The position numbers were made by a program, and so were the translations under genes. Positions 38,494 to 47,760 of a stretch of 64,000 nucleotides of DNA are shown one piece after another. The DNA comes from a virus. Lineage: Duplodnaviria; Heunggongvirae; Uroviricota; Caudoviricetes. The stretch's first letter is position 1. Each line of letters opens with the position of its first letter. The stretch spans positions 1-64,000 of IMG/VR virus record IMGVR_UViG_2718218131_000011. One strand, given 5' to 3'. Under the pieces are notes generated by a model. That model was not told the DNA's origin and ran no database searches. It saw nothing but the letters and a program-made list of their open reading frames with translations.

Positions 38494-38849
38494 AGCACCA
38501 CGTCCTGTGTGATAGTTATATCCCTGATACGAATGGATATTTTCAACTTATCAAAAGCATCTCCCTCGGCTACTGACAAGCCAGAAATCGGTATGTCAGA
38601 TAAATCTACCGTCAGTTTTTGCAACAGCATTGCCTCAACCGCAATTTGAACATGCGACAAGTTGGTCGGTTCGTGTTTAAACTGCGGTAAAACATTGCCC
38701 CATGACGGATCTCCGTATACCTCACCCTGATAAGTGTTTAGCCACTCATATAAACGAGCGCCCCAGGCCTCCTCCTGGGACTCATACGTTTTTACGCCGG
38801 ATAACTCCAGCGTCAGCAAAGGATCAATTTCGTTATTGTTGGCCATCAA
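38490..38849 (-). CDS. Small structural protein
   Basis: 119-aa ORF between sit and the baseplate gene. Confidence 0.4.
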   Translation of the reverse strand: MMANNNEIDPLLTLELSGVKTYESQEEAWGARLYEWLNTYQGEVYGDPSWGNVLPQFKHEPTNLSHVQIAVEAMLLQKLTVDLSDIPISGLSVAEGDAFDKLKISIRIRDITITQDVVL

Positions 38850-41800
38850 TCAACTCTCGCGTAGTCATTCATCAACGGATCATCAATTGACAGTGGTACC
38901 GTGCGCATAACGCCCGGCTGAGGCGTGCTGACCTTTACGACAGTTCCCTGGCCTTTCGCCGAGTCTTTGGTGTGCTCTTCAATCCTGGCAAGTAATGAGG
39001 TCATCTGCGCAAACAGCCGCTTCGTTTCACCATCAAGTGAAACGGTATTATCAGCCAACTGCATTGTCGGCTTGGCACCGGAACCACCAAGGTCACTAAT
39101 AACCTGTCCGTCTATCTGCATACGACCGGTTGGTTGCTGCAAATCGTTGGCGGCAGTCGTCACCTGGGACGTGGAGGCTGGTTCAGGCGCATTATTTTTC
39201 CGCATCCCCGGCGAGTTGCGGAGTTTATCGAATAGTCCATCAATCCCCATTTGTGCGCCGAGTTGGTCAAAGTAACTTGAGTTGCTGGTCACCGGACGCG
39301 CCTCTTCAACTGGCATCGGAGTATCAACATACACATTGCCAGCTGCTGTTGCGGTCCCCTTCCCTCGTGCACGTTCTTCGAGCGTTCCCTGAACGACTTC
39401 CCGACGCATACCCCGGCCATTCATGAATTTGTTGACCAGATCGTTAACGCCAACAGCATTGCCGATTTTGTCTACCAGACCGCCTTTCTCAAACGGGCTA
39501 TCACCAGGGGTAAACGCCAGGCCAGTAGACTGATCGATAACAGCGTTATCAGGCAGTGGTCCCCTCACTCCATATTGCGCCCCACCCTGTGCTCCTGCTC
39601 CAGGTGTATAGATTTCACCACCTAAATAGCGAGCACGATGAGTATTGACCTTGATCGCGTACTCACGGTTTTCTTTCGATAAGTCACCTGTGCCTTTTTT
39701 CCACTTATTGATAGTGCCAAACCCAGCGTTATATGCAGTGATGGCCTCGTTTAAGTCTCCATTGGCTTGCTTCAGATACTTGCTCATGAGAAGAGCCGCA
39801 GCTTCTGCCGATTTCACAGGATCAAACGATTCACCTTCAGCTAAGCCAGTCTCTTCACGAGCAATCCCCGTGAACTGAAACATTCCCAGAGCACCGGTTT
39901 GGGATTTTGCATACGGATTACCACCAGATTCAGTTGCAGCAATCGCGTAAAGAGTGCCTTCTGGAAGACCATATTTATTCTCTAGTTCAGCAAAATACGG
40001 AGCCAACTTATCGAGATTTGCCTTACCTTCAGATCCAAGACTTCCGACTTTTACATCCAAGCGGCCATTGTTGTAGGTATCCGCAGCTTTCTGAATGTCA
40101 TTCCTGGTGCCAGTGGTATTAAGCGACGATGATGACGAGCTATTTTGACCAATAGCTTTATCAATTTTCTGCAACGCGCTATTGCCCGTTTCTGCGGCAT
40201 TTGCATTGATAATCTGATTCGCAGTTTCTTTAACTGTTTTATTGCTATCTTTCGCCGTGTCCAGTGCCGCATTTATCACGCGGGTAACAATATTAGTCTG
40301 TTTGGCATCGGATTCAGTTTTAGAATCAGATGTCTCCTGGTGGCTATTAACCGGAGCTTTTAACTCTGGAGCGATTTCTTTCGCATTAGCCTCGCTATTA
40401 ACCGGAGCTTTTAACTCTGGAGCGATTTCTTTCGCATTAGCCTCGCCGATCGGATTGGGTATTTTTGATACAATCATTGCCGCAGGGGTATTTTTAACGG
40501 CATCAACCGCTGCATCTAATGCTTTACCAGGTAAATTTTTAACCCCATCCCAAATATTACCAGCCGCCTCTTTAATGTGTTTCCCTGGGTTCTTAATGAA
40601 ATCAATTGCACTATCAATTGCATCACTGAAAACCTGTTTCAGGTTATCAACAGTAAAGAAGTCTTTGATGGCATCCAGCTTTTCAAGCAGCTTATTAGAT
40701 GTATCGCTAAACCATGCTGAAACAGCATCACCAATCTTTGCTGTGTAATCTTCGAACTTGGTAGAAATGGTGTCGCCAAGGTTAGAAATATATGTTTCTA
40801 AGTTGGTAATCCCACTATCAATGGCCTGGGCAATACTTTCCGTCGAAAATGATTGCAACATATTGCCGATATCCTCAAATCCAAGTGATTTGAGAACCTC
40901 ACCAATGGCGCTGCTAATACCAGATACCAGTCCCCCCATATCAAGAACATTGGCTAACGTATAAGCGGCTTTTTGCTGGAATGATGGATCTTGTCCTGAT
41001 TTAAGCCCAAACGCTCGACGTTGCGCTTCTGTATCATTCCAACCGGTTACCGCATCATAAATACCTCCAGCCACTGTGCCGACTAAGGGAATTGCGCGTA
41101 ACGCCCCTTTACCAACTGCCTTTAATCCAAGTTTACCTGCTGCCCGGGCAGCCAAATCTCCACCTTCATGGGCGATAGTCTTCTTGCCACCACCGCGTAG
41201 CATTCCTACAAGTTTCTTTGCCCCCAGAGCGCCAAAAGCGAGTGCTCCAGCTTTTTTCAGCATGCCACGCCCCATTAACAACGACGCGACGCCACCGGCC
41301 CCCTTCCCTAACAGGCTAAATAGTTTGGACAGCAAGCCGCCCTTCTTTTTCCCGGTGTTTTTGGCTATCTGATCAAGGGCGCTGAGAATCTTGTCATTGC
41401 CCTCTTTAATTTCGCTGGTCTGCTCCTGAAGTTCCTGAACTGTCCGTTTTTGGGTGTTAACCTGAACGACATCGGCACTATTTTGCGATTTACGCCTAAA
41501 AAAACCTTTTCTACGGCTGTTATCGTCATTGCCACAAATCACATCGGCAATAGACTTTCTGGCACCATTAAGCGATCCACCAACTTCTTTTGATATCCCG
41601 CCAAGCTCCTTCCCTGCTGCCCACAATGGACCAGCAACGGCATAACCTAACGCATCAACGGCACGAGTCTCTGAAGGGTTACCTATGCCTTCAGCTACTT
41701 TTGACAGTTTTTTTAATAAACCTGATTCAGCATTTAGACGCTCATCATCCTCTTTGCGCCTGGCCTTTTCAGCACGTTCAGCACGGGCATCTTCCGCTGC

Positions 41801-42586
41801 GGCCTTACTCCCTGACTTTCCAATAAAACGACCACGCGCATCGCGTTGGTTTTGGCTTTTTTGCGCACCGCCTTTTTGATCGAACATTTCGCGAGCGTGT
41901 TCGGCTGCTTCGGTCCGTTGTGCCTTTATATCCTCTGGTATAGCCTTCCTGCGTCGTTTTTTACCCTTTGGTGTAGTTGATTTGGCCTGCTGTTCCTGTT
42001 GAGCAATGCCCTCCTGAACTACACGAGAAACGTCCCCTAAATTAAGCCGTTTCATTGCGTCAACAATAGGGTCTACTGATGGCGCATTGGCCACAAAGTC
42101 TGGCCGGGAATTTTCGATTGTTCGATTTAATGCCGACACACTGCGAGATACTGGGTCAACCGTTGCAACGCGTTCCCCTTTCAAATCACGAGCGAGTTTG
42201 ACCGTTTCTAACCGCTGTGCTTTAACATCCTCTGTTATTGCCTCTCTTCGTCTATTTGGGGGATTGTGCGCTGTTGGTGCAGCCTGCTGTGCACGGTTAG
42301 TGACTTTGTCCTCCCGTATACGAGAAACGTCCCCTAAATTAAGCCGTTTTATTGCGTCAACAATAGGGTCCACTGATGGCGCATTGGTCACAAAGTCAGG
42401 ACGTGAATTTTCGATTGTGCGATTTAATGCCGACACACTGCGAGAGACAGGATCAACAGTTGCAACTCGTTCCCCTTTCAAATCTTCAACAGCTTCCCGA
42501 ATACCTGCAAGCTCTTCCAGCTCTTTCGCGCTGGCGGTTTCAACTGTCCTTATAACATCGTCAATATTGGCGTTTTTTCTTTCCAT
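38846..42586 (-). CDS. sit: Sit-like structural injection transglycosylase / tape-measure-like protein
   Basis: 1246 aa with a lytic transglycosylase core (GALGMFQFTGIAREETG...AYNAGFGTINKW) and long Gly/Ala-rich and coiled-coil regions. Confidence 0.8.
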   Translation of the reverse strand: MERKNANIDDVIRTVETASAKELEELAGIREAVEDLKGERVATVDPVSRSVSALNRTIENSRPDFVTNAPSVDPIVDAIKRLNLGDVSRIREDKVTNRAQQAAPTAHNPPNRRREAITEDVKAQRLETVKLARDLKGERVATVDPVSRSVSALNRTIENSRPDFVANAPSVDPIVDAMKRLNLGDVSRVVQEGIAQQEQQAKSTTPKGKKRRRKAIPEDIKAQRTEAAEHAREMFDQKGGAQKSQNQRDARGRFIGKSGSKAAAEDARAERAEKARRKEDDERLNAESGLLKKLSKVAEGIGNPSETRAVDALGYAVAGPLWAAGKELGGISKEVGGSLNGARKSIADVICGNDDNSRRKGFFRRKSQNSADVVQVNTQKRTVQELQEQTSEIKEGNDKILSALDQIAKNTGKKKGGLLSKLFSLLGKGAGGVASLLMGRGMLKKAGALAFGALGAKKLVGMLRGGGKKTIAHEGGDLAARAAGKLGLKAVGKGALRAIPLVGTVAGGIYDAVTGWNDTEAQRRAFGLKSGQDPSFQQKAAYTLANVLDMGGLVSGISSAIGEVLKSLGFEDIGNMLQSFSTESIAQAIDSGITNLETYISNLGDTISTKFEDYTAKIGDAVSAWFSDTSNKLLEKLDAIKDFFTVDNLKQVFSDAIDSAIDFIKNPGKHIKEAAGNIWDGVKNLPGKALDAAVDAVKNTPAAMIVSKIPNPIGEANAKEIAPELKAPVNSEANAKEIAPELKAPVNSHQETSDSKTESDAKQTNIVTRVINAALDTAKDSNKTVKETANQIINANAAETGNSALQKIDKAIGQNSSSSSSLNTTGTRNDIQKAADTYNNGRLDVKVGSLGSEGKANLDKLAPYFAELENKYGLPEGTLYAIAATESGGNPYAKSQTGALGMFQFTGIAREETGLAEGESFDPVKSAEAAALLMSKYLKQANGDLNEAITAYNAGFGTINKWKKGTGDLSKENREYAIKVNTHRARYLGGEIYTPGAGAQGGAQYGVRGPLPDNAVIDQSTGLAFTPGDSPFEKGGLVDKIGNAVGVNDLVNKFMNGRGMRREVVQGTLEERARGKGTATAAGNVYVDTPMPVEEARPVTSNSSYFDQLGAQMGIDGLFDKLRNSPGMRKNNAPEPASTSQVTTAANDLQQPTGRMQIDGQVISDLGGSGAKPTMQLADNTVSLDGETKRLFAQMTSLLARIEEHTKDSAKGQGTVVKVSTPQPGVMRTVPLSIDDPLMNDYARVD
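40343..40444. repeat. Perfect 51-bp tandem direct repeat (two copies) inside sit
   Basis: GCTATTAACCGGAGCTTTTAACTCTGGAGCGATTTCTTTCGCATTAGCCTC repeated head to tail; in frame, encoding EANAKEIAPELKAPVNS twice. Confidence 0.8.
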
Positions 42587-42667: not shown

Positions 42668-43549
42668 TCAGCGTCCTGAATCGGTATACCCCCATACAAA
42701 ACCAGGTTGGACACTAAGGTCTGATAGCTTTTCAATCCCCACCTGTGGAATGAAGTCGGTAGCCCGAAAGGGCACCCACAGACGGGTATATGCACCCTCT
42801 GTGGACTCCTTTTTATCCTGATTTGGGCATTTATGCGGCGGGAGACGAAGACGCATTTCACCTTTATCGATGTAGCACGGTAAACCATGTTCGAGCTTTT
42901 CATGAGCCAGTCGGATGTGTGCCGCCAGCTTCATAAATTCAGTATCAATGGCCATCCGTTTAATCGTTTCATAACGACGCTCAGCCTGATCTTCACGAGT
43001 ACCGCTAACATCGTTATAAAGCTCACACTGATAAGCGAATTCCCAAAAACGCAAATCAACGATCGCTTCTTTGAATTCCGCGTCGTCTTCAGGTGGCAAT
43101 GCTGCACGGCGCATCTCCAGCATTTCCATTGCCCAACCATTAAGCGGCACGATACGCCATTGATAAGGTACTCCCTCTACAGACACCTCAATATCGTCAA
43201 TGAAAGGTTCCACTTCCAGGACCTGGATATCTTCAGCCAGAGCATTCATATCGCAATCGTAATAATGCTCTTTACCGCAATGTTTACAGGTGTAGGTGAA
43301 TGTCTCAACCGGTGTTTCACGGGAGCCGGTAAATATCCACCATAACGCGGTAATCCGGTCCTGCGCCGTCCATGTCAGGGGATCATGTTTCGCGGGTTCA
43401 GCCAGCAAGGCTTTTAAATACGCCGTTGTCTGTTGTTCTTGTTCCTCCGGTGTTATCGAGTTGAAACGCATCGCATCAGCAATATTTGGCTGACGGAACT
43501 GGATCAATTCAGTTGGCCGCGATGGTAGCGGGAAAAGAGGTAAAAGCAT
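42668..43549 (-). CDS. Hypothetical protein (PmgB-like position)
   Basis: 293-aa ORF downstream of sit. Confidence 0.4.
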   Translation of the reverse strand: MLLPLFPLPSRPTELIQFRQPNIADAMRFNSITPEEQEQQTTAYLKALLAEPAKHDPLTWTAQDRITALWWIFTGSRETPVETFTYTCKHCGKEHYYDCDMNALAEDIQVLEVEPFIDDIEVSVEGVPYQWRIVPLNGWAMEMLEMRRAALPPEDDAEFKEAIVDLRFWEFAYQCELYNDVSGTREDQAERRYETIKRMAIDTEFMKLAAHIRLAHEKLEHGLPCYIDKGEMRLRLPPHKCPNQDKKESTEGAYTRLWVPFRATDFIPQVGIEKLSDLSVQPGFVWGYTDSGR

Positions 43550-43563
43550 CCTTGCTCCTTAAT

Positions 43564-44175
43564 TCAAAGAGAAAAGCTAAAGCCCAGAAGGGAAGCCAAA
43601 GAACTTGAGGATTGGTTAAACGTGCTGTGCAATGCGAAGGTCATTGGGAATGACTTAAATTCCGTAACCTGATCCCGCGCATAGGTGACATCGCCGGTAG
43701 TGACCGGAAATACAGTCATCTCATTTTCCAGTTTGGTTAAGCCGGAAGACAACAACCGATAAATACGCACATTGAGCAAATATTTAGACGGTATATTCCC
43801 GGTACCGTCTGGATTAATCACCCGACTTTTTGCCGTCTTAAACCAGTCCAAAACGAGGCCATCAACGGTATCCCTGACCATCATTGTTATCTGCCCAGGC
43901 GAACGCTCCGTTGGTTGAAGGATATTCCCTCCGCCGATTTTAATCGTTTCATATTCGATGCTGTAATCGTGGTAGGTAATATCTTTGGCAAAGAAGTCTG
44001 CCCCCTCCAGTCCATCAACTTCGACAGAGAACTGCCATCCTTGCGCGAACAGCATTTTGTTCATGATGATTGACGTCAGCTTACCAACTTCCCGCTCACC
44101 AACGCCGGAGCCAAATAATGTCGTCGTTAATGCCGAAGATACATAAGACTTTACTGAAGCAACATTAAGCCCCAT
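43564..44175 (-). CDS. Putative tail structural protein
   Basis: 203-aa ORF in the tail module. Confidence 0.4.
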   Translation of the reverse strand: MGLNVASVKSYVSSALTTTLFGSGVGEREVGKLTSIIMNKMLFAQGWQFSVEVDGLEGADFFAKDITYHDYSIEYETIKIGGGNILQPTERSPGQITMMVRDTVDGLVLDWFKTAKSRVINPDGTGNIPSKYLLNVRIYRLLSSGLTKLENEMTVFPVTTGDVTYARDQVTEFKSFPMTFALHSTFNQSSSSLASLLGFSFSL

Positions 44176-44185
44176 ATCAGCCCCC

Positions 44186-44776
<591 letters not shown>

Positions 44777-44832
44777 TTAACAGATTCTACGAGTTGTCAT
44801 TTGTGACAGTATGCTCGCAATCGTAGCGATTA

Positions 44833-45372
44833 CTACCACCAACTGCTAGCTTTCTTCTCTCTAGCTTTTCCTTCGCTTTGCAGTAAATCTTTACTTCCTG
44901 TAGAAATATTTCTATTTGCATCAGCCTCAGACTGAATTACATCTGTCTTAGCTGCTCTCTCCTTCAACTCCTGCTCTATAAAATCGTTTTCTCGCTGGAC
45001 ACGAGCCGCTTTTGCTTGCAGTTCGAGTTTCATGCTTTCGAGTTGCAGCTTGCGAAGCTCATCCTCATAAGCTTGATCTCGCTTCTTGTCATTTGCTAGC
45101 TCGGCTTCTCGTTTCGCTCTACGTTCATTTTCTGCAGCAACACGCTGTTTTTCGCGTGCAGCAGCGGCAGATGCTGCTTTTTCTCTTCTAATACGTTCAG
45201 CTTGTGCTTGTTGGCGAATAAGTTCTTTTCTGGCATCCTCAGCTTGCTGCTCTTTAGCTCGCCCTTCATTTTCCGCTTGAGCAATAGCAGCAATTTGACT
45301 TTGCAACGAGTTAGCCAAGGCAGTGCCTACACTAAACGTAGAAAAGATTAGAAATAAAATAATTTTATTCAT
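44833..45372 (-). CDS. Secreted coiled-coil protein
   Basis: 179 aa with signal peptide MNKIILFLIFSTFSVGTALA followed by an A/E/K/R/Q-rich coiled coil (TolA-like composition). Confidence 0.5.
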   Translation of the reverse strand: MNKIILFLIFSTFSVGTALANSLQSQIAAIAQAENEGRAKEQQAEDARKELIRQQAQAERIRREKAASAAAAREKQRVAAENERRAKREAELANDKKRDQAYEDELRKLQLESMKLELQAKAARVQRENDFIEQELKERAAKTDVIQSEADANRNISTGSKDLLQSEGKAREKKASSWW

Positions 45373-45375
45373 AAA

Positions 45376-45888
45376 TTATTTCTTTTCTGGACAAGTAGCA
45401 TTTGGCTGAATTCGAGTTTCATTATCTTTAGTTGAAATAAGCACAGCAAGCCCCGTTGTAAACTGGCATGCTTTACCAACTTGAGTTGAAGTGAACACCT
45501 TAGTTCCTTCTTTATAAGTCAGTGAAACACCTTCAACAATTGTTTTATCACTAACCAAAGAACCAGCCGCTGCACCAAGAGCCGCACCACCAGTACCGCC
45601 AGCTACAGCACCCAGTGTCGATGTGCCTTTAACATTATAACCGGCAACGCCCCCAGCAACAGCTCCCAGTACCGCACCAAATGTCTGTGCCGCTTCTTTA
45701 TTAGCTTTATTATCAACTTTCACTTTAGCTGGAAGCACAGAGATAATATTGACTGTCTTTGTTTCCTGCTTCGAATTCAATTGAGCGGTATCATAAACAT
45801 CGGCAGCATAATCAGCACCGCTAGATTGACACCCAGAAAGAAGAATTGCAGATACAACAAGAGCGCATAAAGTATACTTTTTAGACAT
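45376..45888 (-). CDS. Outer-membrane lipoprotein with glycine-zipper motif
   Basis: Lipobox LLSGC after a hydrophobic signal; Gly-zipper segment GAVLGAVAGGVAGY...GAVAGGTGGAALGAAAGS. Confidence 0.6.
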   Translation of the reverse strand: MSKKYTLCALVVSAILLSGCQSSGADYAADVYDTAQLNSKQETKTVNIISVLPAKVKVDNKANKEAAQTFGAVLGAVAGGVAGYNVKGTSTLGAVAGGTGGAALGAAAGSLVSDKTIVEGVSLTYKEGTKVFTSTQVGKACQFTTGLAVLISTKDNETRIQPNATCPEKK

Positions 45889-46178
45889 AAGAATCATCCC
45901 AGAAAAACAAAAACCGGCGAGAAGTTACCACGAGAACGGAAAGTAAACAAGAATACTCCCATTGACTTATATCAATTAATCAACTTTTTATAAGCTATCC
46001 CTAACTTATTGTGTATAGCTGAAAAGTCAGAGACAAGTTCACCATCTGCATTATTTCTTAAGGTAATAGTTTATTGCTAACTTAATTTATGTATCGACTA
46101 TTGATATCCATCTTAAAGTTACAATATCCCTCTGCATTATTTTTCATCACAAATAATATATCTATTGCACGACACTCA

Positions 46179-46195
46179 TCTGCTCTAATAAATTT
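46179..46195 (+). promoter_or_regulatory. C1 operator-like site upstream of the c4-icd-ant region
   Basis: TCTGCTCTAATAAATTT matches the consensus ATTGCTCTAATAAATTT at about 15 of 17 positions. Confidence 0.55.
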
Positions 46196-46379
46196 GTATT
46201 TTTAAGTCGCGAATGCTATCTTTTCGCATCATATTGACCTTTTAATCGTTCAGGCTTATAGTTCCGCCGTCGTAGCAAATTCTGCGACCGGGTTTAGCAG
46301 CCTGAATACTTACGCGGACAACCGCAGATTTCCGATATTGCGGTATTTTTGTGTCCGTAAACCACGTTACGCCCGAATT

Positions 46380-46460
46380 ATGGTGGGGCGTGATGGGGAG
46401 GCTTCGGCCTGCTGGTTTCGTAAGTGCCAGTCTGCTAACCCCGTCACGTCCTGCCACCTG
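46380..46460 (+). ncRNA. Putative c4-like antisense immunity RNA
   Basis: Structured GC-rich segment (GGTGG...CCACC) between the operator and icd at the position of P1 c4; boundaries approximate. Confidence 0.3.
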
Positions 46461-46507
46461 TTTAGCAGCGGGTCGCAGGTTGTTTATCAACTTACGAGGC
46501 CGTAACT

Positions 46508-46729
46508 ATGGTTAATGCCAATCCTTGCGCACGCCAAGAATTCATCTGGCGTTTCTATTCCTGTAAAAAACACCACTATCACTTCGTTATCGCAGCAACA
46601 GAAGACGAAGCACGCTCTCAATTGCCTGATGGCCCCTGCATTTTTACTGCCCGTTTTTCAACTAACTCGCGCAATTCACTTAGTTACTGGAACCTCCCCT
46701 TCTCTGCCGACGTTCAGGGGGATTTATGA
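46508..46729 (+). CDS. icd: Icd-like protein (interference with cell division)
   Basis: 73-aa ORF whose stop overlaps the ant start; size and position as P1 icd. Confidence 0.55.
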   Translation: MVNANPCARQEFIWRFYSCKKHHYHFVIAATEDEARSQLPDGPCIFTARFSTNSRNSLSYWNLPFSADVQGDL

Positions 46730-47760
46730 AAAAACCTCTCGTCACCCGTAATGAAATAGCCGAAGCGATCGCCCTGCATACAACCTGTATGCCGACACGG
46801 GAGATCCCCGGCGCAATTGCCAACTATTTCATCATAACCAGACGTTTTTATACCCGAACAGATAAGGCTGTGATCAACAAGCTACTGATAGCCGAGATCA
46901 GGGATTATTTGATTGAACAAGGACGTCTACGTTACGCAACAGTGGCAGCAGAAATGAGAAAGGAGGCACACAGAGTGACCGGTAAAAATTTGAATATTGA
47001 AAAACCAGCACCTGTTACGTCAGCTACGCCAACACCAGCCGTGAATGTCATCCCCAACATCGGAGACACAATCGACAGCCAAACATTGTTGAAGATGGTC
47101 AATGAGGCACGGAAATTATGTAGCGAAAAACCAGTTCGCAATAATGATTTCATTGCCAGAGTTAAGGATGAACTTGAAGGAGAAACCTACGAAATTTTCG
47201 TAGGTCAAAAAAACGGCGCAGAAATAGATATTATAACAATGACCTACAAACAAGCCCTGCGAGTTGCCGCGCGCGAATCAAAAGCTGTCCGCCGTTCGCT
47301 GATCGACAAACTGGAAGAATTACAGCAGGCAAACTCCCCTACCCCACCGATCCCCCAAACATTACCAGAAGCCCTACGCCTGGCTGCCGAGTTGGCAGAA
47401 CAGAAATTGCAGCTGGAACAACAGCTGGTGGCCGCAGCCCCTAAAGTCGATTTTGCCGACCGGGTATCAGTGGCTAATGGAATCCTGATCGGGAACTTTG
47501 CAAAGGTCGTTGGACTTAAGCAAAACGCCCTTTTCTCATGGTTGCGCCAGAACGGCATTCTCATGGCTTTTGGTGCGCGCAAAAACGTACCGCACCAACA
47601 GTACATCAACGCCGGGTATTTCACGGTGAAAGAAGTGGTGTTGGATGATGAAAATGGCTACCAGATACGGCTGACGCCCCAATTAACGGGTAAAGGCCAG
47701 CAGTGGTTAACTCGCAAGCTACTTGATGCTGGTTTGTTAAAACCAGTAGCAATAGGTTAA
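46726..47760 (+). CDS. ant: Antirepressor Ant
   Basis: 344 aa; C-terminal antirepressor domain shared with the downstream paralogue; position after icd. Confidence 0.8.
   Translation: MKKPLVTRNEIAEAIALHTTCMPTREIPGAIANYFIITRRFYTRTDKAVINKLLIAEIRDYLIEQGRLRYATVAAEMRKEAHRVTGKNLNIEKPAPVTSATPTPAVNVIPNIGDTIDSQTLLKMVNEARKLCSEKPVRNNDFIARVKDELEGETYEIFVGQKNGAEIDIITMTYKQALRVAARESKAVRRSLIDKLEELQQANSPTPPIPQTLPEALRLAAELAEQKLQLEQQLVAAAPKVDFADRVSVANGILIGNFAKVVGLKQNALFSWLRQNGILMAFGARKNVPHQQYINAGYFTVKEVVLDDENGYQIRLTPQLTGKGQQWLTRKLLDAGLLKPVAIG

Follow-up and report, generated by a model that had tools for sequence, protein, structure and literature searches.

In the window (the whole stretch of 64,000 nucleotides that was analyzed), a P7-type P1-like phage-plasmid carries, in place of the P1 sim genes, two genes that by sequence similarity are a diverged phage-plasmid copy of the enterobacterial envelope operon yfgH–yfgI. 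We favor, with a probability only a little above one half (roughly 55%), the explanation that this is a lysogenic-conversion envelope module whose products would reinforce or remodel the outer membrane of the host. As a sequence feature the pair is ordinary and has been known for years, as the already annotated P7 genes upf50.5 and upf50.0; the analysis puts a YfgH/YfgI and SlyB-type envelope module behind records labeled “unknown,” “DNA methyltransferase,” or “tail protein.” In E. coli and Salmonella, P1-like phage-plasmids are widespread and bring resistance genes with them; a conserved cargo operon that modifies the envelope could bear on the fitness of the host, on its tolerance to bile, detergent, or serum, and on its susceptibility to phages.

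The gene pair and its place in the sim locus

The pair consists of two minus-strand open reading frames whose coordinates are exactly those given in the earlier note (Table 1). The lipoprotein gene and the DUF5384 gene lie 3 nt apart and therefore form one operon. An alternative upstream ATG of the lipoprotein gene, at 45897, is the start used in the P7 record. Both genes are real and not chance open reading frames, because the E-values of homologues reach down to 1e-98 and dN/dS between alleles is 0.04–0.12.

When the window is compared with P1 by BLASTN, positions 43500–44804 align at 97.5% identity and positions 46181–47500 at 91%, with no alignment between them. This gap in P1 homology, 44805–46180, corresponds to P1 simC–simB–simA, and P7 is colinear with the window across the whole module. 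The earlier note had placed the pair between the tail genes and the c4 region, where P1 has simABC, and BLASTN bears this out: the module sits in the exact simABC slot. Its left border is the late promoter LPsit and its right border the C1 operator of c4 (BLASTN against P1; P1 and P7 annotation). LPsit adjoins the module from outside the cassette and drives pmgC/tubA–tub–sit; Op(c4) adjoins it on the other side.

The module is 99.5% identical in nucleotides to P7 upf50.5/upf50.0 and 99.5–100% identical across P7 and other P1-like phages. The P7 genes (GenBank AF503408; also in RCS47, SJ46, JL22, and phi456) are the same module: they too lie between LPsit and Op(c4), carry the same signal-peptide annotation, and show no material difference. 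The P7-type records list the function as unknown, and their RefSeq versions mislabel the lipoprotein as a “DNA methyltransferase.” At an identity of at least 99%, the module is found in 167 of the approximately 508 P1-like plasmids in PLSDB, about one third, and the reading frames of both genes are intact in every one of these 167 copies.

Published work describes the sim region as a hot spot of variation, low in GC, in P1-like elements (PMC9603915, PMC6906374). Other P1-like contigs carry alleles of the pair at the same locus with 88% and 83% identity, and a third allele at the locus encodes two Ro157c2YLVW proteins, which are also secreted. All alleles examined at this locus thus encode signal-peptide proteins: SimA, SimB, and SimC, the P7 pair, and the two Ro157c2YLVW proteins. 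The slot looks like a hot spot at which cassettes for different secreted proteins alternate, and this makes it a compact, testable site in which to seek new exclusion or envelope functions.

Table 1. Features of the module and its borders (positions in the window).
Feature	Position	Strand	Basis or remark
LPsit late promoter, -10 TAGAAT and -22 box	44784..44803	-	P7/P1 annotation via colinear alignment
Exchangeable module, 1376 bp	44805..46180	-	substitutes the P1 simC–simB–simA block
yfgI-like DUF5384 gene (P7 upf50.0), 179 aa	44833..45372	-	ORF; Pfam PF17358
Sec signal peptide of the DUF5384 protein, residues 1–20, cleavage ALA/N	45313..45372	-	translation; P7 sig_peptide
yfgH-like outer-membrane lipoprotein gene (P7 upf50.5), 170 aa from MSKKY	45376..45888	-	ORF
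Predicted glycine-zipper helical hairpin, residues 71–109	45562..45678	-	motif count; aligns to SlyB transmembrane hairpin
Lipoprotein signal peptide, lipobox L-S-G-C (Cys20), Gln at +2	45829..45888	-	translation; P7 sig_peptide
AT-rich upstream region, 31–38% GC	45898..46178	-	composition; part of the module
Palindrome TTGAT-N4-GTCAA, FNR/CRP-family-like	45962..45975	.	approximately 80 nt upstream of the lipoprotein ATG
C1 operator Op(c4), TCTGCTCTAATAAATTT	46179..46195	+	consensus scan, 2 mismatches; P7/P1 annotation

The lipoprotein

Lipoproteins with a residue other than Asp at position +2 are sorted to the outer membrane in a Lol-dependent manner. The lipobox of the phage protein reads LLSG followed by C20, a cysteine that is invariant among 31 homologues, and the residue at +2 is Gln; Lol-dependent outer-membrane sorting is therefore predicted. 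GxxxG motifs start at residues 71, 75, and 79 and again at residues 93, 97, 101, and 105, which gives two glycine-zipper helices, and with the lipobox and the Gln at +2 these two series uphold the earlier description of the product as an outer-membrane lipoprotein with a glycine zipper. The Pfam glycine-zipper matches (PF05433 and PF13488) are sub-threshold for the lipoprotein and reach E = 4.8e-8 at best within the family; the sub-threshold matches to the glycine-zipper 2TM and TraT models fall on the hairpin of residues 71–109. An NCBIfam scan of both proteins returned only noise. The “DNA methyltransferase” label (attached to phrog_1277 and used in RefSeq names) is a mislabel of this 170-aa lipoprotein, which is homologous to YfgH and SlyB.

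The lipoprotein is 69% identical in amino acids to K-12 YfgH (E = 5e-73). More distantly, the profile of the YfgH family aligns with SlyB (7OJF) over its full length (positions 9–162, E = 3.5e-9), and a Foldseek search with the monomer model, which is poor (pLDDT 55), returned SlyB 7ojf_A as the top and only significant match (E = 5.5e-6). SlyB (PDB 7OJF/7OJG) is a PhoPQ-regulated glycine-zipper lipoprotein that stabilizes the outer membrane and forms rings in it around lipid and protein patches. It shares with the phage lipoprotein the architecture of a lipid anchor, a small beta domain, and a glycine-zipper hairpin, but it is only approximately 26% identical and has no DUF5384 partner gene. 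SlyB builds rings that enclose nanodomains of lipid and outer-membrane proteins, whereas a ring of chromosomal YfgH has only been predicted (bioRxiv 10.64898/2025.12.22.696046). The genetics of the two proteins are also distinct, as mutations in clsA suppress the phenotype of a yfgH deletion and mutations in the Mla pathway suppress that of slyB (bioRxiv 10.64898/2025.12.22.696046).

A second comparison is with TraT, the IncF surface-exclusion and serum-resistance lipoprotein (PDB 9E2V). TraT is likewise an outer-membrane lipoprotein and forms rings, with a helical membrane barrel, and its chromosomal gene has repeatedly been co-opted by mobile elements (PMC11733297). Weak matches to the Pfam TraT model occur in 29 of 31 YfgH-family members, the best with E = 2.5e-7, and lie in the glycine-zipper region. 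Membership in the TraT family (PF05818) was rejected at 23.1 bits against a cut-off of 31, with a match covering profile positions 74–160 of 214, and so was a TraT fold, since the Foldseek comparison with 9e2v_A was not significant (E = 0.16, TM 0.25). TraT also differs in length, with a chain of 226 residues in 9E2V against approximately 170 aa, and its extracellular ring domain (PMC11733297) has no counterpart in the lipoprotein. The lipoprotein is thus not a member of the TraT family, and TraT is kept as an analogy only.

The DUF5384 protein

The second protein matches PF17358 (DUF5384) with E = 3e-43 (147.8 bits against a cut-off of 25; profile positions 4–145 of 145) and is 47% identical in amino acids to K-12 YfgI (E = 9e-46). 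Its C-terminal half is conserved and contains the motif DKKRDQxYEDELR...TDVIQSEADANRN; in alignments of 28 and of 32 homologues, the conserved positions are R98, D104, TDVIQSEADANRN, and G168. AlphaFold2 models the protein as a single continuous helix from residue 3 to residue 178 with a mean pLDDT of 87.

The earlier note had described a TolA-like coiled-coil protein with a signal peptide. The Sec signal and the long helix stand, and the likeness to TolA comes down to composition and shape. Both the DUF5384 protein and domain II of TolA are long helices of the periplasm with a high content of Ala, Glu, Lys, and Arg. However, the DUF5384 protein has a cleavable signal peptide where TolA has an N-terminal membrane anchor, it lacks the C-terminal globular domain (TolA domain III), and there is no detectable homology: a Pfam scan returned no TolA family, and no PDB sequence matched at E up to 1. 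A canonical coiled coil was rejected for the N-terminal half. Because charged residues make up 41% of the mature protein and no heptad a/d hydrophobic pattern is seen in its N-terminal half, “long charged helix” is a safer description than “coiled-coil.” Nothing on upf50.0, upf50.5, or DUF5384 turned up in searches of the literature.

Upstream region and expression

The leader of the module is 283 bp long and presumably carries its own promoter. A sigma-70 search found in it one weak match (minus strand 46164..46136, 9 of 12), no better than in shuffled sequences, and a scan with the C1-operator consensus found none inside the module. Expression in the lysogen is plausible because the module lies outside LPsit, has its own AT-rich leader, and contains no internal C1 operator.

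A palindrome upstream of the lipoprotein gene is a candidate regulator site, for which a role as a -35 element is an alternative. Three P1-like alleles with a coding dS above 1 retain it at the same place in their alignment, and it is perfect in one of the other loci (L014, 4912–4925). Taken alone, the palindrome does not rise above chance in the window (8 matches, with 3.6 expected), and in a reading of the allele alignment the distance between it and candidate -10 elements is not consistent.

The same surroundings bear on the proposal that the genes act in the lytic cycle or in the virion, as a tail component or as a factor that holds the outer membrane until spanin-mediated lysis, which we consider very improbable. 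The pair does have the orientation of the adjacent tail and injection operon, with no intrinsic terminator between, and the phi456 record labels the products “minor tail protein” and “tail tip protein.” Nevertheless, the module is upstream of LPsit and so outside it, P1 makes normal virions without the genes, and only about one third of P1-like plasmids carry them. The lipobox and the Sec signal direct both products to the envelope, whereas virions assemble in the cytoplasm. Homology to structural virion proteins, which the earlier note had named as evidence that would count against its proposal of a block to superinfection, was not found: neither protein has a structural PHROG or Pfam match, and a weak one to phrog_1047 (E = 0.005) is a Gly/Ala-rich stretch. 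The two tail labels were rejected, as they have no support from homology and the paper on phi456 makes no mention of the proteins (PMC10967188).

Relation to chromosomal yfgH–yfgI and selection

The chromosomal operon yfgH–yfgI of E. coli (srgI–srgL in S. Typhi) has the same two families in the same order and with the same tight linkage. Both it and the phage pair keep the lipobox, the glycine zipper, Cys141 and Cys166, and the C-terminal motif of DUF5384. They differ in the upstream region, as nucleotide similarity begins only within the coding sequence, and synonymous change between the phage and host copies has reached saturation. The lipoprotein is 73–76% identical to some Enterobacter and Xenorhabdus proteins and 68% identical to E. 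coli YfgH; being about as close or closer to the former, it is no recent capture from E. coli.

A DUF5384 gene directly downstream of a yfgH-type gene was found in the window and in loci L003, L004, L005, L006, L010–L014, and L032. One related pair adjoins the replication gene of a Salmonella phage-plasmid of approximately 102 kb, and related pairs in integrated prophages lie between the antirepressor gene and the tail-fiber genes. Phage TL-2011b and approximately 60 IMG/VR contigs were rejected as carriers: what they contain is a chromosomal yfgG–yfgH–yfgI block, 100% identical in amino acids to K-12, and as this block stands at the very end of the contig it is host flank.

The pair is under strong purifying selection. 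This bears on a further alternative, namely that the module is a passenger, a piece of an enterobacterial chromosome that came in through a recombination hot spot, became linked to the immunity region, and is without function for the phage. The low-GC, variable character of the sim region (PMC9603915, PMC6906374) and the AT-rich edge of the module would suit such an origin. Against it, both frames are intact in all of the near-identical plasmid copies, dN/dS is low despite dS above 1 in three alleles, and at least two further temperate-phage backbones have acquired the pair in independent captures. The natural copies did not show frequent frameshifts or nonsense mutations, nor was dN/dS near 1 in the phage-borne clade. 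We regard a mere passenger as highly unlikely.

Proposed function in the lysogen

What is documented for YfgH is a role in stabilizing the outer membrane under stress (bioRxiv 10.64898/2025.12.22.696046). Deletion of yfgH leads to sensitivity to SDS/EDTA, outer-membrane permeability, and loss of outer-membrane proteins, and its overexpression rescues knock-downs of genes for outer-membrane biogenesis (bioRxiv 10.64898/2025.12.22.696046). The mechanism that we propose for the phage pair follows these lines. A self-contained module with its own upstream region would have been inserted at the variable sim locus of P1-like elements, and in the lysogen a promoter belonging to the operon itself, and not the late promoter, would drive its transcription, which a regulator of the CRP/FNR family might control. 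The lipoprotein would be sorted to the outer membrane, insert its glycine-zipper hairpin, and oligomerize into SlyB-like rings around patches of lipid or outer-membrane protein. The DUF5384 protein would be exported to the periplasm as a helix of approximately 24 nm, and its conserved C-terminal half may work with the lipoprotein. The reinforced or remodeled outer membrane would make the carrier cell, and with it the plasmid prophage, fitter under envelope stress. If incoming phage or DNA were excluded at all, this would follow from the remodeling as a secondary or additional effect. Against this explanation, chromosomal yfgHI is present in 5419 of 5426 E. coli genomes, so that nearly every E. 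coli already has it and an extra dose brings no obvious benefit. The strong divergence, especially that of YfgI at 47%, suggests an altered specificity, and the sim slot and the third secreted-protein allele fit a role in exclusion at least as well.

In such a role, a YfgH-like ring and its YfgI-like partner would alter the outer membrane or the periplasm so that adsorption or DNA entry is stopped, for P1-like or other phages or for conjugative DNA, in which case the pair would be analogous in function to P1 Sim and would have a parallel in TraT. Like the envelope module, such a system would have to be expressed in lysogens. The blocking of DNA entry, as suggested in the earlier note, is possible as an analogy drawn from the position of the locus and from the signal peptides in every allele examined there. 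The module replaces simCBA exactly, it shares with SimA, SimB, and SimC the slot, the strand, and signal peptides on all products, and a new specificity could lie behind the distance that separates it from the host copy. The weak TraT matches of nearly the whole YfgH family, together with the co-option of TraT from chromosomes (PMC11733297), point the same way, as does the position of the prophage-borne pairs between antirepressor and tail-fiber genes, which is typical of accessory (“moron”) genes. However, the number and size of the proteins differ from those of the Sim proteins, and there is no sequence similarity: the BLASTP comparison with SimA, SimB, and SimC, which the earlier note had proposed, gave nothing significant, with a best E of 0.07 over 30 residues. 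The PADLOC defense models returned 0 families for both proteins, a match to the Cor PHROG (E = 0.021) is confined to residues 7–51 in the region of the signal peptide, and the TraT match falls below the Pfam cut-off with no significant match in fold. Membrane stabilization is the only function in the family that has been tested. P1 and P7 are described as heteroimmune, each plating on lysogens of the other, and P1 sim is described as excluding only when it is on a multicopy plasmid. Exclusion of P1 by a single-copy cassette is therefore probably weak, and we consider exclusion as the primary role doubtful, if well worth keeping in view.

A broader version of this idea, which strikes us as rather unlikely, is that temperate phages have repeatedly co-opted YfgH–YfgI and that the pair has diverged into a dedicated device for exclusion or outer-membrane remodeling, a second and unrelated “Sim.” The carriers would be the P1-like phage-plasmids, a second type of phage-plasmid in Salmonella, and integrated prophages, and phage or DNA would be kept from entering by a ring like that of SlyB together with a periplasmic helix of 24 nm. 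Plasmids have co-opted chromosomal TraT in a comparable way, and the idea, if true, would provide a first function for DUF5384. A search of the literature on SlyB or glycine-zipper proteins in connection with prophages or superinfection exclusion found no relevant work.

As to the favored envelope module, one observation on a natural carrier is circumstantial, being an effect of the whole prophage that is not mapped to the pair: curing of phi456, a P1-like phage with the module, lowered acid and oxidative survival, survival in macrophages, and colonization (PMC10967188).

Genomic setting and limits of the module

The window is a P1-like phage-plasmid of the P7 type, and its stretch 44700–46100 is 99.5–99.9% identical to P7, RCS47, SJ46, JL22, phi456 and others. 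The pair is not new: P7 has it as upf50.5 (labelled ‘outer membrane lipoprotein of unknown function’) and upf50.0 (‘membrane protein of unknown function’), and by family it belongs to the YfgH/YfgI (SlyB-type) envelope system, here carried by a phage. In P7 the late promoter LPsit lies on one side of the two genes and the C1 operator, Op(c4), on the other; in P1 this interval is filled by simC-simB-simA. The earlier note had placed a pair at the sim position; the ORF limits coincide with its coordinates, and the locus is as it described. Homology to P1 stops at 44804 and resumes at 46181 (BLASTN), and the exchanged module is therefore 44805–46180, 1376 bp in the window versus 1513 bp in P1. 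The module carries its own leader of 283 bp (31–38% GC), in which a single, weak sigma-70-like match was found. A C1-operator consensus match lies at 46179–46195, and the consensus scan found no such operator inside the module. Directly to its right, Rfam matches to the C4 antisense RNA (46256–46308) and the a1b1 target element (46376–46461), of 70.8 and 56.2 bits, confirm that the immI region is intact.

Identity of the two proteins

Features of the module in the window
Feature	Position	Strand	Basis
Helix-protein gene (upf50.0, DUF5384, YfgI-like)	44833–45372	minus	ORF, 179 aa
Lipoprotein gene (upf50.5, YfgH-like)	45376–45888	minus	ORF, 170 aa
Palindrome TTGAT-ATAA-GTCAA	45962–45975		leader alignment

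The two ORFs are separated by 3 nt and have the gene order of K-12 yfgH-yfgI. An in-frame ATG at 45897, the start chosen in the P7 record, gives a lipoprotein of 173 aa. Its signal peptide ends in LLSG-C20, followed by Gln. The residue after the lipobox Cys sets Lol-dependent sorting (the +2 rule), which predicts delivery of this lipoprotein to the outer membrane. Within residues 71–109, seven GxxxG repeats fall into two helices, in keeping with the description of an outer-membrane lipoprotein with a glycine zipper. The protein is 69% identical to K-12 YfgH (E = 5e-73), and a family profile built from 31 YfgH-type proteins gave a full-length match to the solved SlyB structure (7OJF/7OJG; E = 3.5e-9). 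The monomer model is poor (pLDDT 55), as expected for a membrane-embedded oligomer; its sole significant Foldseek match was SlyB (E = 5.5e-6), with TraT (9E2V) second and non-significant (E = 0.16). A recent capture from the host was rejected, because identity to Enterobacter or Xenorhabdus proteins (73–76%) is at least as high as that to E. coli YfgH (68%).

For the second protein, the Pfam DUF5384 model scored 147.8 bits (cut-off 25), and identity to K-12 YfgI is 47% (E = 9e-46). The families of both proteins and their envelope-targeting signals are established. The second protein, to which the earlier note had also given a signal peptide, has one of the Sec type that ends in ALA, followed by N. 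Residues 3–178 are predicted by AlphaFold2 to form a single continuous helix (mean pLDDT 87); the mature chain of 159 residues would span ~24 nm if helical and is 41% charged, with abundant Ala, Glu, Arg, Gln and Lys. The N-terminal half lacks a hydrophobic heptad periodicity, and ‘long charged helix’ is therefore a safer name than the ‘coiled coil’ first suggested. The label ‘TolA-like’ does not stand for homology, as no TolA family or structure was matched in Pfam or the PDB. In the DUF5384 family, the N-terminal helix is variable and the C-terminal half is conserved (DKKRDQxYEDELR...TDVIQSEADANRN...G); a PDB sequence search found no related solved structures.

With these assignments, phage genes that carry wrong labels receive a correct identity. 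The name ‘DNA methyltransferase’, given to the lipoprotein family (PHROG 1277) and inherited as a product name by the RefSeq phage records NC_050152, NC_031129, NC_042128 and NC_019445, is contradicted by the YfgH/SlyB homology. Homology likewise contradicts the ‘minor tail protein’ and ‘tail tip protein’ of the phi456 record, for which the phi456 paper offers no basis.

Distribution, alleles and selection

The sim slot has already been recognised as a low-GC variable region (PMC9603915, PMC6906374). Among 508 PLSDB plasmids with adjacent tub-pmgC genes, the module is present in 167, every copy at 99% identity or more, and full simCBA in 137. A third allele is found in phage vB_EcoM-Ro157c2YLVW (L008; 3612–4088 and 4140–4787), encoding two other signal-peptide proteins (phrog_3429 and phrog_3933, function unannotated), the second of which opens with the SimA N-terminus. 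About 128 further plasmids of the 508 match the simA 5′ end alone, which suggests that this allele is common. Exported proteins are encoded by every slot allele examined.

The pair recurs on temperate phages in diverged forms. Other P1-like contigs (L010/L011 and L014) have alleles of yfgHI type in the sim slot, with lipoproteins that are 88% and 83% identical in amino acids. An 86% allele is located in an IS-flanked island, a 62% pair adjoins the replication gene of a ~102-kb Salmonella phage-plasmid with tail-fibre and exonuclease genes, and in integrated prophages a 74% pair lies between an antirepressor gene and tail-fibre genes. Comparison of these alleles gives dS values from 0.5 to more than 1.5, or saturated, with dN/dS of 0.04–0.12 in both genes, indicating that purifying selection has long acted on the pair in mobile elements. 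Beside the 88% and 83% alleles, extra genes stand between the DUF5384 gene and pmgC (L010/L011 6175–8298; L014 6380–7623), including YfjT-like, SH3_3 and DUF559/MTES_1575 proteins, so that further cargo builds up in the slot.

Two sets of apparent carriers were rejected. Phage TL-2011b (L007 1850–3425) and about 60 IMG/VR contigs (loci L037–L094) have the chromosomal yfgG-yfgH-yfgI block at the extreme end of the contig, with 100% protein identity to K-12. It is host DNA flanking prophages that are integrated near guaA rather than cargo of the phages, and it makes the phage distribution of both families look wider than it is.

Proposed envelope function and possible superinfection exclusion

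The chromosomal yfgH-yfgI genes are present at ~69% nucleotide identity in 5,419 of 5,426 complete E. coli genomes (distant BLASTN), and the phage-type copy (99% or more) was found by BLASTN of these genomes in 164 records. Deletion of yfgH in E. coli causes SDS/EDTA sensitivity, a more permeable outer membrane and a loss of outer-membrane proteins, whereas its overexpression rescues knock-downs of outer-membrane biogenesis genes, and a SlyB-like ring has been predicted for YfgH (bioRxiv 10.64898/2025.12.22.696046). Mutation of yfgI confers sensitivity to nalidixic acid (PMC3536626). In S. Typhi, SdiA and acyl-homoserine lactone induce the orthologues srgI-srgL, and S. Typhimurium is reported to have no orthologues of them (PMC11619404).

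The phage lipoprotein may likewise form SlyB-like rings in the outer membrane, with the DUF5384 helix working together with it in the periplasm. If the operon is transcribed in the lysogen, the pair would remodel or reinforce the envelope as a lysogenic-conversion function. Curing of phi456, a P1-like phage with the module, reduces acid, oxidative and macrophage survival as well as colonisation (PMC10967188), which is circumstantial support, the effect being that of the whole prophage.

The main rival, that the pair may exclude incoming phage or DNA, draws on the module's position and on TraT as a parallel case, an outer-membrane lipoprotein that forms rings and was taken over from chromosomes by plasmids (PMC11733297). 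Similarity to the Pfam TraT model in 29 of the 31 YfgH-family members is consistent yet sub-threshold. Conversely, BLASTP against SimA, SimB and SimC found no similarity, PADLOC returned zero matches for the pair, and a weak PHROG ‘Cor’ match (E = 0.021) was limited to the signal-peptide region. With TolA also unmatched, homology lends exclusion no support and points instead to an outer-membrane-integrity system; the anatomy and locus of the earlier note stand, and its TolA-like and Sim-like comparisons do not stand as homologies. P1 and P7 are described as able to plate on lysogens of one another; if so, a single copy of the cassette would hardly exclude P1 strongly. The envelope and exclusion readings are compatible, as TraT provides serum resistance as well as exclusion.

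Leader palindrome and the neighbouring sit gene

Leaders were aligned for three P1-like alleles that show synonymous saturation across their coding regions, and a single conserved block was left ~80 nt upstream of the lipoprotein start codon. The palindrome there resembles the FNR/CRP-family consensus; its counterpart in L010 reads TTGAC-ATTT-GTCAA, and L014 (4912–4925) has a perfect TTGAT-N4-ATCAA. The motif occurs 8 times in the window versus 3.6 expected, which alone is not significant, and its spacing to candidate -10 elements differs between alleles in the alignment read by eye. As a lead only, the candidate palindrome hints at regulated, perhaps anaerobic, expression. A perfect TTGAT-N4-ATCAA is also found in K-12 (L003 2194–2207), just upstream of pdeF and ~700 bp upstream of yfgH; this box most likely belongs to pdeF rather than yfgH.

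Elsewhere in the window, the ORF for Sit, the injection transglycosylase and putative tail ruler, spans 38846–42586 and encodes 1246 aa (P7 gene, 3393 bp, ~1130 aa; P1 gene, 3423 bp, ~1140 aa). The longer Sit coincides with an exact 51-bp tandem duplication (40343–40444) and a 212-nt direct repeat of 84% identity and 297 nt spacing (41976–42187 and 42273–42484). If Sit is a tail ruler, these repeats could alter tail length.
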